64,000 nucleotides of DNA from Samistivirus egole (lineage: Duplodnaviria; Heunggongvirae; Uroviricota; Caudoviricetes), in IMG/VR virus record IMGVR_UViG_2974779775_000001, positions 60,108-124,107 of that record; one strand, given 5' to 3'. A program made the translations under genes and the position numbers. Positions 14,379 through 60,359 of this stretch are shown piece by piece. Numbering within the stretch: position 1 is the stretch's first letter; every line of letters starts with the position of its first letter. Below the pieces are notes generated by a model. It ran no database searches. It saw only the letters and a program-made list of their open reading frames with translations, and had not been told where the DNA came from.

Positions 14379-14451
14379 GGTTCCATAGGATAATGACTAA
14401 TCCGCCCTTCCAGGGGAAGGGTAATACCGGTTAAATTCCGGACTAGGAACC
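14379..14451 (+). ncRNA. tRNA-like element / probable pseudo-tRNA
   Basis: Good acceptor (GGTTCCA/GGAACC), a D-arm and an anticodon-like stem. The T-loop is non-canonical (TTAAATT), the anticodon loop lacks U33, and the geometry is off by 2 nt. Confidence 0.3.
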
Positions 14452-14622
14452 ACCAACTTTTGGGTCGATTGAGACACGGTTATCTTACACAATGGATACT
14501 AGGTTCGATTCCTAGGGGTGCTGTAAAAGGTGCTCTGTAAAGTCATCTCAGATGTGTGTGGTAGGATGACATTAGGTACTACACTCTCTCCGTTCTCGCC
14601 ACTTACCTAAAGGATTTACATT

Positions 14623-15144
14623 ATGACGGTACTCCTAAGAACAATTCATGGTTCGCATCTGTACGGTCTCGCTCACGCAGGTTCGGATAAAGACATCTAC
14701 GAAGTGGTTGCTACAAAGCGAACCAAGCGGAAGCGCAATATTAAGCAAACCATCGTGAATGGAATTGACAAGACGGTCGTTGACCTCTCGACATTCATGC
14801 ACATGGTTGACGAATGCGTACCTCAAGCACTTGAAGCGCTATGGACGCCGGTACCAGATGTGGATGAAATCCACCAGTTCCGGACACAATATCGAGTGAA
14901 TCGCGCCAAGATGAAGGAAGTATACATTCGTACCGCTCTGAACTTCGCCAAGCATGAAGACGTAAAACGAAAGCGACATGCTATTCGTCTCCTTCTAAAC
15001 CTTGGTGAGGCCCTGGAATACGGTAAGTTCAATCCACGGCTGTCCACTATGGACAAGTTCATTCTCCGCTCATCACTCGGAGAGTCTGGAGCATATGAGG
15101 ATGTCTTTCTGGGCGTTCTCGATGAAGTGCAAAAGTGGGTCTAA
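14623..15144 (+). CDS. nucleotidyltransferase-fold (Pol beta-like NTase) protein
   Basis: Minimal NTase motif HGSHLYGLAHAGSDKDIYEVV (GS-x-D-x-D). Confidence 0.45.
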   Translation: MTVLLRTIHGSHLYGLAHAGSDKDIYEVVATKRTKRKRNIKQTIVNGIDKTVVDLSTFMHMVDECVPQALEALWTPVPDVDEIHQFRTQYRVNRAKMKEVYIRTALNFAKHEDVKRKRHAIRLLLNLGEALEYGKFNPRLSTMDKFILRSSLGESGAYEDVFLGVLDEVQKWV

Positions 15145-15157
15145 CGGCTCACGCCAA

Positions 15158-15234
15158 TGGGGCGTATACCCTCACTCTGATAAAGTGTAGAAAGGTTAAT
15201 CGGTTACATGTGGGTTCAATTCCCACCGTCCCAA
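15158..15234 (+). ncRNA. atypical tRNA-like element
   Basis: Acceptor TGGGGCG/CGTCCCA and T-arm GTGGG-TTCAATT-CCCAC are present, but the 45-nt interior does not fold into canonical D and anticodon arms by eye. Confidence 0.3.
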
Positions 15235-23262: not shown

Positions 23263-24915
23263 ATGTCAAACGCACTTAACACTGCTGCCAAGGGTCTGAA
23301 CAAGACTCCTCAGTCTCAGAAGGCTAAGGCAGGTCAGGTAAAGAACAACGCTGGTGGATTCGTCTTCCAGGTTTCTGACCAGGCTCGCCTAGAGCGATTC
23401 CTGATTCTGGGTGTAGACGGTGGCACTTATTACGTCAAGGAGAGTGCACACGCTCGTTCCAACGTACAGTTCCTCAACGAGATGATTGAGCGAGACGAAG
23501 CCTCTGTACTGAACACCATTGTGGACGTGTCTGTCAATGGTCGTGCATACAAGCAGTCTCCTGCCCTGTTCGCTCTAGCCTCTGTCATTGCCAATGGTAA
23601 GAACAAGCAGGCGGTCAAGGCGGTATTCAATCGTGTCGTTCGTACAGGCACTCACCTGTATGAGCTTCTGAACTACCTTACTTCAATGAACGTTGGGTGG
23701 GGTCGTTCAAAGCGAGAGATTGTTGCTTCTTGGTTCGACCGAGATGCTGACAAGCTGGCTTATCAGGCGGTCAAGTACCGTTCTCGTAAGTTCGGTGAGC
23801 AGACTTGGACACTCCGAGACGTAATGCGTCTTTCCCACCCACGAGATGTGAACACGTCTGTTGCAGATTTTGTTCTCGGCAAGCCTCACGATGCTACCGA
23901 TGACCTTCGGGTTATCGAGGGCTTCAAGAAGATGCAGAGGGCTCAGTCTGTCGAGGACGTTCACAGCGTTCTCCGTGAGTACGAGATGCTTTCATGGGAG
24001 ACAATCCCAACTCAGTTCCTCAAGGACGTGAGTGTGTGGAAGCGAATCTTCGCTAACGGACAGCTCCGTGGCCAGGCTCTTGTTCGAAACATCACTCGCC
24101 TCGCGCGAATTGGTGCTTTCCAGGACATGCGCTTTGCTGCTGCGTATGCGGGACAGCTCACAAATCAGGAGATGATTGTACAGACTCGTCTGCATCCAAT
24201 CAACTTCCTGAATGCGTCTGTCGTGTACAACGAAGGCCAGATGAAGACCGTAAGGGACCGCTGGGGCTTCGAGCGCGAGGAGCGTGTAAAGGACTGGACA
24301 ACTGAGAGTGTTATTGCGGATGCCCTCAATGAGGGATTCCACAAGGCATTCAAGGCTGTCGAGCCTGCCGGTAAGCGAACGATGCTGGCTCTGGACGTAT
24401 CAGGCTCCATGAGTGCAAAGGCTAACGGTCTCGACCTTAGCTGTGCTCAGGTTTCTGCTGCAATGTCTATGGCCATCGCTCGTACCGAGCCTGCTCACAT
24501 CATCCGTGGATTCACGTCCAATGGATATGGCTGGTCTGGTCGCAACAGTGACCTTACCGACCTTGGTATCAGCGCTAAGACAGACCTTGCTACGGCAATG
24601 CGTAATGTCCAGCGTCACAACTGGGGTGGTACGGACTGTAGCCTTCCAATGCGTTGGGCTCTGGACCGTGGAATTGAAGTAGACACGTTCGTCATTATCA
24701 CCGATAATGACACGTGGGCTGGTGAAATCCACCCATTCCAGGCGCTCAAGGAGTACCGTAAGAAGACTGGCATTCCAGCTCGTCTGGCAGTTCTGGGAGT
24801 TCAGGCAACTGAATTCACCATCGCTGACCCAAGCGACGCAGGAATGATGGACTTCGTAGGGTTTGACAGCAATGCACCTCGTGTGCTCGCTGACTTCTCC
24901 GCAGGTCGCATCTGA
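23263..24915 (+). CDS. rsr: Ro60 (TROVE domain) ortholog with C-terminal vWA domain
   Basis: TROVE-like N-terminus (GGFVFQVSDQARLERFLILGVDGGTYY) and a C-terminal MIDAS motif (LALDVSGSMS). The length of 550 aa matches the bacterial Rsr architecture. Confidence 0.7.
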   Translation: MSNALNTAAKGLNKTPQSQKAKAGQVKNNAGGFVFQVSDQARLERFLILGVDGGTYYVKESAHARSNVQFLNEMIERDEASVLNTIVDVSVNGRAYKQSPALFALASVIANGKNKQAVKAVFNRVVRTGTHLYELLNYLTSMNVGWGRSKREIVASWFDRDADKLAYQAVKYRSRKFGEQTWTLRDVMRLSHPRDVNTSVADFVLGKPHDATDDLRVIEGFKKMQRAQSVEDVHSVLREYEMLSWETIPTQFLKDVSVWKRIFANGQLRGQALVRNITRLARIGAFQDMRFAAAYAGQLTNQEMIVQTRLHPINFLNASVVYNEGQMKTVRDRWGFEREERVKDWTTESVIADALNEGFHKAFKAVEPAGKRTMLALDVSGSMSAKANGLDLSCAQVSAAMSMAIARTEPAHIIRGFTSNGYGWSGRNSDLTDLGISAKTDLATAMRNVQRHNWGGTDCSLPMRWALDRGIEVDTFVIITDNDTWAGEIHPFQALKEYRKKTGIPARLAVLGVQATEFTIADPSDAGMMDFVGFDSNAPRVLADFSAGRI

Positions 24916-36168: not shown

Positions 36169-36240
36169 GCATGTAAGCCAGGGATAAGCTAGGCGGGCCT
36201 GTAAAGCCCTACCTCGATGGTTCGAATCCGTCTACATGCA
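36169..36240 (+). tRNA. tRNA with anticodon GTA (Tyr codons) but a short variable arm
   Basis: Perfect acceptor GCATGTA/TACATGC, anticodon stem GGGC/GCCC with loop CTGTAAA, T-arm GATGG-TTCGAAT-CCGTC. Only 72 nt. Confidence 0.45.
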
Positions 36241-37697: not shown

Positions 37698-37931
37698 ATG
37701 CACGAAATTGACCGGTGGGAAGGAGAGGGTGGTCACTTGCATTACGACCTAACTCATAGAGAAAGATTGATGAAGATTCTCAAAGAGGCCGGTATTCGTT
37801 TCGAAGAAGATACATTTGGAGAGGAAGGAACAGACCAAGATATAACTGTCTATCCGAACAACGATGAGAGAGTCTATTTCTCCTTTCATCCAGACGGATT
37901 CCTCAGCGATATCAACGTCTTTTATTCATGA
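37698..37931 (+). CDS. hypothetical protein
   Basis: + strand ORF. Confidence 0.45.
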   Translation: MHEIDRWEGEGGHLHYDLTHRERLMKILKEAGIRFEEDTFGEEGTDQDITVYPNNDERVYFSFHPDGFLSDINVFYS

Positions 37932-38485
37932 AAACATTCTATGACACAGAATTTTTGGAGACTGGGCCAGATGAGCCTACTAGGTTCATCAGTCTAGGGG
38001 CTGTACGTGAGGACGGTGAGGAGCTGTATCTCATCACTAACAACCTCTACGTGCTCAACAGAGCAAATGAGAATGAGTGGATGAGGGAGAACGTCATCTC
38101 TCAGTTGCCAGTAAAGCAGGCGGCCTCTGGTGGCCTTGCTTGGGACACTCAGCATCCTGACTACGCAAGGGTACTTCCCAACGAAGCGATTGCTGGACTA
38201 TGGAGAGATTTTGTTCTCGACTACGAGCCTCGCTACGAGTTTGACACGCCAGAGCTATGGGCCTACTATGGAGCCTATGACCACTACGTGGCCAGCCAGC
38301 TCTTTGGTTGCATGAGGTTCTTGCCAGATGGCATGCCGATGTATACTATGGACATCAAGCAGCGCTGGCACAATGAAGGTAAGCCTAGTCTGCCTCCACA
38401 AGAGGGCACGGAGCACAACGCTCTTGACGACGCCCGGTGGAATAAGGTAGCATATGAGTACCTTGATGAGTACGCCAATCGGTGA
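37928..38485 (+). CDS. DEDDh 3'-5' exonuclease (DnaQ / RNase T-like)
   Basis: Exo I motif FYDTEFLETG and Exo III motif EHNALDDARWN. Confidence 0.7.
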   Translation: MKTFYDTEFLETGPDEPTRFISLGAVREDGEELYLITNNLYVLNRANENEWMRENVISQLPVKQAASGGLAWDTQHPDYARVLPNEAIAGLWRDFVLDYEPRYEFDTPELWAYYGAYDHYVASQLFGCMRFLPDGMPMYTMDIKQRWHNEGKPSLPPQEGTEHNALDDARWNKVAYEYLDEYANR

Positions 38486-38495
38486 CTCATCACCT

Positions 38496-38761
38496 GGGGA
38501 TGCCTTGGTTTCGACTGGGGTGGATGACTTTAGTTTGCAGCCTGACATTGAGGAGATGTCATTAAAAAGCCTCAACACTATAAATGCCAACTCTAAGTTC
38601 GCATTCGCTCTTGCTGCCTGACGGTAGCTGAGCGGGGCTAGTGGGCGGCCTGGCAACAGAATAGCCCACCACAAACTTTCTTGTAACACCCCTTGACACA
38701 TGGCTGTGTATAGACTACTGTTTGAAGCATCAGGACGCGGGTTCGACTCCCGCCATCTCCA
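38496..38761 (+). ncRNA. ssrA: tmRNA (SsrA), tag peptide ANSKFAFALAA
   Basis: 5' end GGGGATGccttGGTTTCGAC matches the conserved tmRNA 5' region. The resume codon GCC falls at positions 91-93 of the RNA, followed by the in-frame tag ANSKFAFALAA and TGA at 38586..38621. The 3' end carries T-arm GCGGG-TTCGACT-CCCGC and an acceptor strand CATCTCC-A that pairs with the 5' GGGGATG. Confidence 0.7.
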
Positions 38762-38833
38762 CGTGGATTACGAAACACTAATGAACAAGTGGATGAAAGT
38801 AATCAGAGATAAGAAAGGTTCTGTTACAGAATC

Positions 38834-38862
38834 TTGACACAGAACACTCGATACAGTACAGT
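38834..38862 (+). promoter_or_regulatory. SigA-type promoter
   Basis: TTGACA-N17-TACAGT upstream of the NlpC/P60 gene. RBS-sequestering hairpins follow. Confidence 0.4.
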
Positions 38863-39002: not shown

Positions 39003-39461
39003 ATGTATAAGTCAGCGATAGCTGCGATACTGGTCGCCTCTGCTATTGTGGTGGCAACGCCCGGTCAGTCAGAGGCAGCAACATTGAAGTCAAAGGCCCT
39101 TGCTGTTGCTAAGGCGCAGAAGGGAGATAGATATCAATACGGTGCTGAGGGACCAAATGCTTTCGATTGTTCCGGACTCTCTTGGTATTCATACAAGAAG
39201 GCTGGCAAGACAGTCAAGCGCGTAGCTAATGACCAGTACAACGCTTCTAAGCACATCAGTGCAAGCGCTGCACAGCCAGGAGACCTTGTATTTTTCAAGT
39301 ACAAGTCTGGTGGTAAGGTCTTTCACATGGGCATCGTGTCCAAGAAGGGGTACATGGTCCATGCAAATGCTGGTGGATACTATGGCAAAAAGGTAATTGA
39401 GGAGAAGATTGCTCCATATTGGGGTAAGAACTATAGAGTCTACTACGGCTCTGTCAAGTAG
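39003..39461 (+). CDS. secreted NlpC/P60 (C40) peptidase
   Basis: Signal peptide, catalytic Cys motif FDCSGL, PGDLVFF and HMGIV. Confidence 0.8.
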   Translation: MYKSAIAAILVASAIVVATPGQSEAATLKSKALAVAKAQKGDRYQYGAEGPNAFDCSGLSWYSYKKAGKTVKRVANDQYNASKHISASAAQPGDLVFFKYKSGGKVFHMGIVSKKGYMVHANAGGYYGKKVIEEKIAPYWGKNYRVYYGSVK

Positions 39462-39950: not shown

Positions 39951-40436
39951 TCAACGAATAGCTTCTCTACGCTTACCAGCATAGGTATCTGTTTGGGTAT
40001 GACAATTAGGACAAAGAAATCTTAGATTCTCAATTCTATGGTCGTTGTTCTTTCCATTGATGTGGTCTAGTTGTAGAACAAGTGGTTCGCCATTCCATTC
40101 TGCTCCTAGGCCACATTTTTGGCATTCGTACTCAAGCCACCCGTTGGCAAGGATGCGAGTCTTGAGATTCACTCTGTTGTTGACATAAGGGGAGTCCTTG
40201 ACGAAGACCTCCTCATCTGGTATCTTGTTAGGTGGAACGAGAGGGGCGAAGCTGAGTTCAATTCCAAACGATTCACATGCAGCCCTGAACCTCTTGTAGG
40301 TTGCTCCTCCGTGTGCTAGCTTGAGATAAGCAACACACTCACGAACTGACTTGCAGTTCTGTACAGCTTCACGTAGTCTGGCTTCATCAGTCCAGACAGT
40401 AATCTTCTTTCTAGTCATATTGACAGTATAAGCCAC
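39951..40436 (-). CDS. HNH homing endonuclease
   Basis: This is the only convincing minus-strand gene. HNH motif QLDHINGKNNDHRIENLRFLCPNCH and an upstream CQKCG. Confidence 0.8.
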   Translation of the reverse strand: MAYTVNMTRKKITVWTDEARLREAVQNCKSVRECVAYLKLAHGGATYKRFRAACESFGIELSFAPLVPPNKIPDEEVFVKDSPYVNNRVNLKTRILANGWLEYECQKCGLGAEWNGEPLVLQLDHINGKNNDHRIENLRFLCPNCHTQTDTYAGKRREAIR

Positions 40437-43250: not shown

Positions 43251-44351
43251 ATGAAGTTCACCAAGATTTTCTCTCAGGACTTGCTTGACCAGATGGTCAA
43301 CGAGGGCTTTGTTCGGGTGCAGACTCATCCGGTTCTCCCTCTGCGAATCCTGAACTACTCTGAGAAGGCGCAGTTCGCTGGCAAGTGGAACGCATGTACG
43401 CTTGCTTGTCGTGGCCTTGTCGTTGACGAGTTTGACAATGTCATTGCTCGTCCGTTCGAGAAGTTCTTCAACATGGGGGACTCTCACGCTGCTGACATCG
43501 ACTGGAACGCTCCGGTTGAGGTAACGGACAAGAAGGACGGCTCTATGGGCATCCTTTACTCCGTAATGCCTTACAACGACGCGATTCCGCCTTACGGATT
43601 CCAGTACGGAATTGCTACGCGAGGCTCTTTCCAGTCTGACCAGGCAATTCACGCTACAAAGCTATGGCTGGAGCGCTACAAGAACACCGCTGTCCCTCAC
43701 GACTGGACGTTCATTTTCGAGATTGTCTACCCTGACAACCGAATCGTCCTGGACTACGGAGACATGGATGACCTTATCCTTCTGGGTGCGGTCAACAAGG
43801 AGCACGGCTACGTGTATGGTCCTCGTGAGGCTGCGGCTTTGCTGGATTGGCAGGGGCCGGTAACCGAGGTGTTCGATTACAAGAACATTCACGAGGCTGT
43901 TGGTGCAGACTACCGTCCTAACGCTGAGGGTCTTGTAATTCGCTCTGGTTCTAAGATGGTCAAGCTCAAGCAGGCTGATTACGTTGAGCTTCACCGACTG
44001 ATTTCAATGCTTTCCGAGCGCTCTGTATGGAGTCAGCTCACTGAGGGCAAGACGATTCTGGAGATTTGTGAGGCTCTGCCTGACGAGTTCCACCAGTTCG
44101 TCAAGGATGTCGGTGGCAAGCTGCTCAACGACTACGAGGAGATTGAGATTAAGGTGCGTGGAATCTTCCACAACCTTCTTTCTTCAATGGACGAGGGCTT
44201 CACACGACGTGACTTCGCAATGAAGGCCAACGGTGTGGACCTATACCGTAGCCACATGTTCAACCTGCTTGACGGCAAGAGCATCGATGAGCTAATCTGG
44301 AAGCAGCTCAAGCCCGCTGCAAAGACGGAGGATGGCTACCCTGTCGGGTAG
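43251..44351 (+). CDS. ATP-dependent RNA ligase (Rnl1-like)
   Basis: Nucleotidyltransferase motif I TDKKDGSMGILY (KxDG) in a 366-aa protein, similar in size to T4 Rnl1. RBS AAGGAGG. Confidence 0.6.
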   Translation: MKFTKIFSQDLLDQMVNEGFVRVQTHPVLPLRILNYSEKAQFAGKWNACTLACRGLVVDEFDNVIARPFEKFFNMGDSHAADIDWNAPVEVTDKKDGSMGILYSVMPYNDAIPPYGFQYGIATRGSFQSDQAIHATKLWLERYKNTAVPHDWTFIFEIVYPDNRIVLDYGDMDDLILLGAVNKEHGYVYGPREAAALLDWQGPVTEVFDYKNIHEAVGADYRPNAEGLVIRSGSKMVKLKQADYVELHRLISMLSERSVWSQLTEGKTILEICEALPDEFHQFVKDVGGKLLNDYEEIEIKVRGIFHNLLSSMDEGFTRRDFAMKANGVDLYRSHMFNLLDGKSIDELIWKQLKPAAKTEDGYPVG

Positions 44352-44885: not shown

Positions 44886-45791
44886 ATGGCAACGCTTCTC
44901 ATTCTCCGGGGTGTCCCTGGATGTGGTAAGAGCACCTTCGCTCACCAGTGGCTCAAGGAGGGCGAGCGACGTGCCCGTGTAAACCGTGATGACATCCGCA
45001 TGCAGTTCTTCGGTAAGGAGACTGGTGTAGATGAGAACATGGTTACACAGATTGAGCACATGCAGGTTGACAGTCTGCTTAAGGCTGGATACTCTGTGGT
45101 GGTCGATGACACGAACATCCGTCACGCTTACATCAAGGCTTTCGTCAAGATTGCTGGTAAGCACGGTGTGCCTGTTGCAGTAAAGCAGTTTGATGTAGAC
45201 CTCAAGGTCGCCATTGGGCGCAATGCTGGTCGGGCGGCACAGGGTGGTCGTGACGTTCCTACTCCTGTCATTGAGAAGATGCACAAGTCTCTCAAGTCCA
45301 GTGGACAGTTCACGCGCAAGCTGATTGAGGAAAGCTACTGTAGCTCTCCTGTTGGCAAGCCTTACGTTCGGCCAGTGGGTAAGCGGAAGATTTACCTCTT
45401 TGACATTGATGGCACTCTTGCCAGCATGTCTGACAGGTCTCCGTTTGACTGGTCTCGCGTGGGAGAGGATGACCCTCGTAGGCAGGTCGTACTGACTGCT
45501 CAGGCACTTGCTGAGGCAGGTTACGACATTGTAGTTATGAGTGGTCGTGACTCTAGCTGCCGTGAAGAAACAATTGCTTGGCTGGAGTTCTACGATGTTC
45601 CTTTCTGTGACCTCTTCATGAGGGCAGAGGGCGACATGCGTAAGGACAACATCGTTAAGCAGGAATTGTTTGACCAGCACATCCGTGACTTCTACGATGT
45701 TGTGGCCGTCTTTGACGACCGGCAGCAGGTGGTTGACATGTGGCGTGACATGGGCGTAGACTGCTTCCAGGTTGCGCCTGGAGATTTCTGA
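44886..45791 (+). CDS. pnk: polynucleotide kinase-phosphatase (Pnkp-like)
   Basis: N-terminal P-loop kinase GVPGCGKST and C-terminal HAD phosphatase DIDGTLA, the T4 Pnkp architecture, in a 301-aa protein. Confidence 0.8.
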   Translation: MATLLILRGVPGCGKSTFAHQWLKEGERRARVNRDDIRMQFFGKETGVDENMVTQIEHMQVDSLLKAGYSVVVDDTNIRHAYIKAFVKIAGKHGVPVAVKQFDVDLKVAIGRNAGRAAQGGRDVPTPVIEKMHKSLKSSGQFTRKLIEESYCSSPVGKPYVRPVGKRKIYLFDIDGTLASMSDRSPFDWSRVGEDDPRRQVVLTAQALAEAGYDIVVMSGRDSSCREETIAWLEFYDVPFCDLFMRAEGDMRKDNIVKQELFDQHIRDFYDVVAVFDDRQQVVDMWRDMGVDCFQVAPGDF

Positions 45792-60102: not shown

Positions 60103-60359
60103 CCAAAGAGTTCAAGGGAGTCTTTGATGAAAAAGGGTATCAATGGATGATTGGTGGCGTCTTGACAGTGCCATCAGAACGAGATATCCTTGATACGTTG
60201 GAGCAGGTGGTTGAGAGAATCGCCAAGGAGCCTAGCGGCACCTGGGTAGAGCTTGGCCGCCTTATCTTCATCAAGACTGGTAGTCTCATTGATGTGTACC
60301 TGCATCATGGGACAATAGAGAGGCAAGATGAACAACCCCCTACGGAGCCTGTACTTTAG
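60084..60359 (+). CDS. hypothetical protein
   Basis: + strand ORF. Confidence 0.4.
   Translation: MEFKGLAKEFKGVFDEKGYQWMIGGVLTVPSERDILDTLEQVVERIAKEPSGTWVELGRLIFIKTGSLIDVYLHHGTIERQDEQPPTEPVL

Follow-up and report, generated by a model that had tools for sequence, protein, structure and literature searches.

The tmRNA locus of phage EGole

The DNA analysed here is a window of 64,000 nucleotides that matches Streptomyces phage EGole (MK494112.1; Samistivirus, Stanwilliamsviridae) at 100% identity, with window position 1 corresponding to position 60108 of that record. Within this window, a tmRNA gene is present on the plus strand at 38496–38762; it measures 266 nt when counted to the discriminator A (38761), one further base, C74 (38762), is encoded, and ARAGORN, Rfam, and GenBank all place it there. 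ARAGORN reads the tag ANSKFAFALAA* from a coding part at RNA positions 91–126 (RNA numbering plus 38495 gives the window coordinate). The Rfam match to RF00023 scores 94.9 bits (E = 1.1e-35) and extends over model positions 1–374 of 374, with the gathering score for this family being 47. The two independent programs are in agreement, and the gene call is far beyond chance. Gene order is colinear with RF00023, consistent with a one-piece tmRNA, and the permuted and two-piece tmRNA models (RF04321 and its relatives) gave no match in the window at the gathering threshold. A first-pass annotation, made from the sequence letters, had proposed a compact, reduced, one-piece phage-encoded tmRNA at this site and had suggested ARAGORN and Rfam for verification; the ARAGORN call and an RF00023 match at twice the threshold both bear this out.

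The tmRNA gene starts 10 nt after the stop codon (38483–38485) of gene 182 (37928–38485, +). The product of gene 182 matches PF16473 at 27.5 bits (cut-off 27) and PDB 4OKE with an E-value of 1e-22 and, judged by these matches, is a homologue of the Mycobacterium tuberculosis 3′–5′ exoribonuclease Rv2179c (PDB 4OKE); it is annotated as a 'DnaQ-like DNA polymerase III subunit', and as 'Rnase H' in RefSeq. The tmRNA gene had earlier been described as directly following a DEDDh exonuclease gene. The adjacency stands, with the 10-nt spacer between the two, and the neighbour is more accurately a DEDD-type, Rv2179c-like exoribonuclease homologue. Many Samistivirus genomes share this arrangement of gene 182 and tmRNA; it is not seen in Jay2Jay, Mildred21, Wofford, Tomas, or Muntaha.

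No terminator-like site was found downstream of the tmRNA gene; this, together with the 10-nt spacing after gene 182, implies that the tmRNA is probably cut from a longer transcript. Two promoter-like sequences lie close to the gene. One of these (TTGACG-18-TAGCAT, 38424–38453) is situated inside gene 182, approximately 43 nt upstream of the tmRNA 5′ end; the other (TTGACA-17-TACAGT, 38834–38862, +; 10/12 matches) is found 72 nt downstream of the tmRNA and precedes an NlpC/P60 hydrolase gene at 39003–39461. Further along, an HNH endonuclease gene (39951–40436, −) is among the names annotated under the match in EGole, Cursive, and a few others, but not in most relatives. Most relatives cover only 80%–85% of the 6-kb region. 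The HNH gene is probably a mobile insertion. RNA-repair-type genes are scattered among the tRNA genes at 14623–15144, 23263–24915, 43251–44351, and 44886–45791 (+). One of these genes encodes an RlaP-family nucleotidyltransferase (PF10127); the others are annotated in the EGole record as a Ro-like RNA-binding protein, an RNA ligase, and a polynucleotide kinase.

The tRNA-like domain and the 3′ end

The 5′ end of the gene, GGGGATGccttGGTTTCGAC, starts at 38496 and was correctly recognised in the first-pass annotation as the conserved acceptor and D-analogue region, in which GGGGATG is followed by GGTTTCGAC. In the acceptor stem (P1), the 5′ strand GGGGAUG (38496–38502, +; RNA 1–7) pairs with CAUCUCC (38754–38760; RNA 259–265), ahead of the A at 38761. 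This is the pairing that had been predicted for the two ends, and it includes a G3:U wobble. A G3:U wobble in the acceptor stem is an alanine identity element, and it is present in 15/15 aligned sequences. Among homologues, the acceptor stem remains paired in four compensated versions (GGGGAUG/CAUCUCC, GGGAGUG/CACUUCC, GGGGCUG/CAGCUCC, and GGGGUAG/CUACUCC), all of which possess G3:U70, and acceptor strands pair better with their own partners than with partners taken from the other versions. The D-loop analogue GGUUUCGAC (38507–38515, +) is invariant in all 15 aligned homologues. The T arm (P12) was likewise found as first read, at 38737–38753 (+), with GCGGG and CCCGC (RNA 242–246 with 254–258) enclosing the loop UUCGACU; all of its cells (100%) are paired in the 15-sequence alignment, and two of its pairs have changed on both sides.

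The 3′ end reads ..CUCC-A-C and continues as GUGG, such that the first C alone of the CCA end is encoded. When the register of position 74 is fixed by acceptor-stem pairing, a C occupies this position (the first base after the discriminator) in 42 of the 43 EGole tRNA genes, located from 12973 to 58252, as well as in the tmRNA gene, with its 3′ end at 38762. No C is encoded at position 75 in any of the tRNA genes or in the tmRNA gene, and none encodes the full CCA. Relatives exhibit the same C74 pattern (13/13, 12/13, 6/6, and 4/4), whereas in an unrelated viral tRNA array only 2/8 genes do so. This rule suggests a shared 3′-end maturation signal. C75 and A76 are not encoded and would have to be supplied post-transcriptionally, which also applies to the 43 EGole tRNAs.

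Three annotated tRNA genes are unlisted by ARAGORN, namely Gly (14379–14455), Leu-UUA (15158–15234), and Tyr (36169–36240), of which Rfam supports Leu-UUA alone, and marginally so (30.8 bits versus 29). A related metagenomic phage (L018; IMG/VR contig 3300015242_000042) carries at 2606–2679 a tRNA with the anticodon CUA, labelled 'Pyl' by ARAGORN, which could be an amber suppressor tRNA.

The tag reading frame

The tag frame occupies 38586–38621 (+; RNA 91–126) and is preceded immediately by a conserved AUAAAU at 38580–38585. It opens with the GCC resume codon at 38586–38588, which is the codon at RNA 91–93 that had been picked out from the sequence, and the 11-codon frame ANSKFAFALAA then ends at the UGA at 38619–38621, again as first described. 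Across the homologues, the frame is intact in 19/19 sequences, with length changes confined to multiples of three, and the stop codon and a tag end of the form (F/Y)ALAA are kept in all 19. Variation falls in the middle of the tag, as in ANSNVAFALAA, DNSNVAFALAA, AESNSAFALAA, ANSRNAFALAA, ANSNVASAYALAA, ANSKNASAYALAA, and ANTNFALAA; one further phage, Larnav, is annotated with the tag ANSKFAFVLAA and thus ends in FVLAA. That frame, stop codon, and (F/Y)ALAA end are all retained, while insertions and deletions involve whole codons only, indicates that the encoded tag peptide is under selection.

Helices and pseudoknots

The helix map was derived from 19 homologues of 267–283 nt, representing four genera and four metagenomic viral contigs. 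Pairs were counted on 15 sequences aligned with MAFFT without structural adjustment; P1 and P7 were in addition re-extracted via conserved anchor motifs because MAFFT misregisters both in some rows. Standard pairs occupy 89.6% of helix cells, compared with 38%–49% when the 3′ partners are slid by 1–3 columns. Pairs that have changed on both sides number 18, against 8.2 in shuffles, and 0/500 shuffles reach the observed value.

The 5′ strand of the long helix P2 (P2a–d; RNA 20–47), which connects the tRNA-like domain with the ring of pseudoknots, lies at 38515–38542 (+) and pairs with 38702–38733 (RNA 207–238). Its four segments pair RNA 20–25 with 233–238 (P2a), 31–33 with 225–227 (P2b), 36–41 with 217–222 (P2c), and 42–47 with 207–212 (P2d). 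Within P2 (helices 2–5), 89%–100% of cells are paired and eight pairs have changed on both sides; in P2a, such changes affect 5/6 pairs, and the EGole version of this segment contains one G-A mismatch. The first pseudoknot, PK1 (38543–38574, +), follows directly and is composed of P3 (RNA 48–53 with 61–66) and P4 (54–58 with 75–79). The first P3 pair is seen as UA, AU, and CG, and in Loccivirinae-like homologues, both PK1 stems are wholly rewritten yet still paired, as CUUCUU/AAGAAG and UGGUC/GGCCA.

The stop codon of the tag frame is held in the loop of hairpin P5 (38607–38633, +), in which RNA 112–115 pairs with 135–138 and 118–123 with 128–133. This hairpin is also compensated, with GCUGCC/GGUAGC becoming GCAGCC/GGCUGC, and ACGCC/GGCGU in the Karimac group. 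Downstream lies PK2 (38635–38669, +), a compact H-type pseudoknot comprising P6 (RNA 140–144 with 152–156) and P7, in which GUGGGC (146–151) pairs with GCCCAC (169–174); between the stems is an A-rich conserved loop, GGCAACAGAAUA. Three core pairs of P6 are invariant in the 15-sequence alignment. P7 is far more variable in sequence, its 10 listed versions representing about eight different complementary stem sequences, and its mean duplex energy is −10.5 kcal/mol with its own partner versus −4.9 kcal/mol with mismatched partners.

PK2 is followed by a linker of 32 nt (RNA 175–206; 38670–38701, +), which stands in place of PK3 and PK4 and is the least conserved part of the molecule. Conserved structure was sought in the linker across the homologues and none was found. 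Relatives of 279–283 nt possess an additional small hairpin here (CCY-GGYR-RGG), located after PK2, which is lacking from the 267-nt EGole group, to which NootNoot, Mildred21, and Anedea belong. A third pseudoknot was considered for these longer relatives and rejected, as inspection by eye revealed the small hairpin alone and no conserved loop partner. The first-pass annotation had referred to a pseudoknot region of about 140 nt after the tag; this length is right when measured to the 3′ end, but the pseudoknot proper spans approximately 35 nt (PK2), with the 32-nt linker thereafter. Sequence analysis and comparison with homologues together establish the gene along with its helices and host-like ends.

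The nested minimum-energy fold has an energy of −96.8 kcal/mol (z −3.2). Its preferred pairing of GGGGUG (22–27) with CACCCC (192–197) was rejected, being not kept in Anedea, Genie2, Wofford, or Daubenski, and it is further disfavoured by changes at position 24 that track position 234 of P2a. A hairpin GGGCUA/UAGCCC, which the Rfam alignment places in the PK2 region, was also discarded; it occurs in the nearest relatives of EGole alone and is missing from Anedea, where P7 persists as GUGGAGC/GCUCCAC. An internal promoter (TTGACA-N17-TACTGT, around 38694–38722) was likewise set aside, with its second hexamer matching at 3/6 positions and the promoter scan not reporting it. Conservation of the TTGACA stretch is explained by structure, because it is aligned with the P2 3′ strand in the Rfam model.

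Compactness and comparison with other tmRNAs

Standard bacterial tmRNAs measured 366–414 nt in a batch of 60 loci, a range that covers all 58 read by ARAGORN, and Streptomyces ssrA genes retrieved with a tag-based pattern measured 383–400 nt. At 267 nt, the EGole gene is approximately 120 nt shorter than the ssrA of its host S. griseus (387 nt). The difference arises from the number of pseudoknots: of the usual four, the phage RNA retains PK1 and a single downstream one, and PK3 and PK4 are absent. Loss of these two pseudoknots also explains why the Rfam score is around half that of the host ssrA (94.9 versus 182.4 bits). PK2–PK4 are typical of tmRNAs, not universal, and this region varies among bacterial and organellar members of the family; thus, the absence of PK3 and PK4 is treated as variation and not as exclusion from tmRNA. 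A literature search found no paper describing the structure of Stanwilliamsviridae phage tmRNAs. The two-pseudoknot description of these tmRNAs may be unpublished, but it is a modest variation in a region known to vary.

Outside the shortened region, the phage RNA closely resembles that of the host. The S. griseus ssrA has the same acceptor stem (GGGGAUG/CAUCUCC with G3:U70) and an identical GGUUUCGAC, and the two T arms differ by one loop base. The host tag, ANSKRDSSAFALAA, and the phage tag, ANSKFAFALAA, share an ANSK start and an AFALAA end; the phage tag is shortened in the middle, being three residues shorter and lacking the internal RDSS segment of the host. The host gene encodes CCA and a full pseudoknot set (182 bits), whereas the phage gene encodes C74 only and one pseudoknot after the tag frame (95 bits).

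Short tmRNAs are not confined to this family, as others were encountered on viral contigs in IMG/VR. A broad scan with TTCGAC...GGGTTCGANTCCC was unspecific, returning at least 120 loci that were mostly tRNA arrays, but ARAGORN recovered three compact tmRNAs from these, all scoring above the Rfam threshold: L181 (8142–8387; 244 nt, tag AKQNQFALAA), L233 (4168–4413; 243 nt, tag ANDNVALSLAA), and L261 (5683–5940; 255 nt, tag ANEYQMAA), with lengths as given by ARAGORN. These are short one-piece molecules like that of EGole, although they are shorter still and encode other tags. L261 sits inside a tRNA array and L233 adjoins one tRNA gene. The contigs of all three were not returned by a scan for Stanwilliamsviridae-specific motifs.

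Distribution and prior annotation

A blastn search with the EGole gene identified homologues in 88 Streptomyces phage records from four genera, most of which are annotated as tmRNA, many with the text 'Tag peptide: ANSKFAFALAA*'. The same gene is found in BE1/BE2 Streptomyces phages (Samistivirus, Karimacvirus, Tomasvirus, and Wakandavirus), and PK1, PK2, and a conserved GGAACAGAA loop are common to all of these homologues. In Peebs and Samisti12, the gene is 99.6% identical to that of EGole and annotated as tmRNA, while the annotations of other close relatives, such as Cursive and Leo04, also give the tag ANSKFAFALAA.

Phages of other groups also encode tmRNAs. The catalogue of Hudson et al. 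(2014, PMC4131195) lists phage tmRNAs in Bxz1-type mycobacteriophages and Bacillus phage G; the large phages concerned (Bxz1, Cali, Catera, Wildcat, and others, in addition to phage G) belong to different phage families and infect different hosts from EGole. None of these was matched by blastn with the EGole tmRNA, for which 88/88 matches were Streptomyces phages. The first-pass annotation had suggested an alignment to mycobacteriophage and other actinophage tmRNAs; the phages infect Streptomyces and are thus actinophages, but the nearest relatives are other Stanwilliamsviridae and not mycobacteriophages.

The EGole gene is itself in GenBank, where a tmRNA-type feature at 98603–98869 corresponds to window positions 38496–38762, and every BE1 phage has been described as containing one tmRNA gene and 43–48 tRNA genes (Hughes et al. 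2018, PMC5764925). The gene and its earlier interpretation are thus right and already known. The GenBank feature carries the product text 'Hypothetical Protein', which is an annotation slip.

Proposed function and alternative explanations

The favoured reading, with a probability of roughly 80%, is that the locus is an ssrA-type gene for a one-piece tmRNA that would reach about 269 nt on completion of CCA and would add ribosome rescue via host factors. No SmpB is annotated in EGole, and a local tblastn of S. griseus SmpB (the gene for which adjoins the host ssrA) against the EGole genome gave a best E-value of 0.68. A collection-wide tblastn with the host SmpB (68 records) returned no Streptomyces phage among the organism groups named or the 20 matches listed. 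With no phage SmpB and no encoded CCA, host factors must be used.

On the basis of established tmRNA biology, the RNA would be transcribed along with the rightward early/middle genes and cut from a longer transcript. RNase P would generate the 5′ end, and following trimming of the 3′ end, the CCA-adding enzyme would add C75 and A76; the predicted mature RNA of approximately 269 nt would start at G38496 and end in ...CUCCACCA. By analogy with known systems, the host alanyl-tRNA synthetase would then charge the molecule with alanine via G3:U70, and host SmpB and EF-Tu would bind it, allowing the complex to enter ribosomes that have run to the end of a broken or stop-less mRNA and stalled there. 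Translation would be expected to switch to the GCC resume codon, with the nascent chain gaining A-ANSKFAFALAA. The ribosome would subsequently terminate at UGA and be recycled, and the tagged protein would presumably pass to host proteases via its host-like AFALAA end. EGole has a G+C content of about 49% and infects S. griseus, with Streptomyces hosts reported to be typically above 70% G+C (PMC12509530). For a lytic phage of this composition with more than 40 tRNAs of its own in a high-G+C host, extra rescue capacity may serve to keep ribosomes available.

A broader proposal, which is speculative and on balance unlikely, is that tmRNA has been cut down repeatedly in phages to a core (tRNA-like domain, P2, PK1, tag, and one pseudoknot), of 267 nt in EGole and 243–255 nt in the other viral contigs, and that in Stanwilliamsviridae this core and the more than 40 tRNAs are matured by a dedicated 3′-end pathway. 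The signs of such a pathway would be the near-universal C74 without C75 and the adjacent Rv2179c-like exoribonuclease, which might trim transcripts to C74 before CCA completion.

An improbable alternative is that the phage RNA acts as a modulator or decoy, competing with host tmRNA for SmpB, EF-Tu, or stalled ribosomes. Host trans-translation would then be damped, or rescued proteins would receive the shorter, RDSS-less tag and be handled differently. A phage devoid of SmpB must indeed draw on the host pool, and its tag, three residues shorter than that of the host, differs only in the middle. A precedent is offered by mycobacteriophage DS6A, the tmRNA of which consists of a tRNA-like domain only; a molecule of this kind is reported to be a strong inhibitor of tmRNA, possibly through titration of SmpB (Hudson et al. 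2014, PMC4131195). A decoy, however, needs no resume context, reading frame, stop codon in P5, or ALAA end, all of which are conserved with whole-codon insertions and deletions only. Maintenance of PK1 and P2 by compensatory change also argues against this alternative, as does the C-terminal AFALAA, which matches the degradation signal of the host exactly.

Attachment sites in phages often contain 3′ pieces of tmRNA genes. This, the loss of about 120 nt relative to the host ssrA, and a linker that evolves by insertions and deletions would fit a locus with no present function, either a host ssrA that was captured and is now decaying or a piece of ssrA retained because it mimics an integration site, but such an origin is highly improbable for a gene that is complete at both ends, conserved in 88 records and four genera with compensatory changes in every helix tested and an intact tag frame in 19/19 homologues, and carried by a phage that has no annotated integrase and whose BE1 relatives are described as lytic (PMC12509530).

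Ribosome rescue with host factors, the favoured reading, prompts one to ask why large lytic phages should devote resources to this process; in Streptomyces, the SmpB–tmRNA system is reported to be important for both growth and development (PMC2635970). That the gene exists is not new, given its presence in GenBank and in the BE1 genome paper, and the added value is slight, consisting of the clean minimal architecture, the C74 rule, and the exoribonuclease neighbour. As a one-piece tmRNA that is minimal by nature and suited to Streptomyces factors, the molecule could be used to test which pseudoknots trans-translation needs.

Simple database corrections also follow from the mislabelled product texts and from one unannotated copy. 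Features overlapping the tmRNA are labelled 'Hypothetical Protein' in EGole, Evy, Tribute, Bmoc, TomSawyer, Bordeaux, and Muntaha, with the EGole and Muntaha entries confirmed as tmRNA-type features, and SaltySpitoon (ON260819.1) contains the homologous sequence at 97147–97425 without any annotation.
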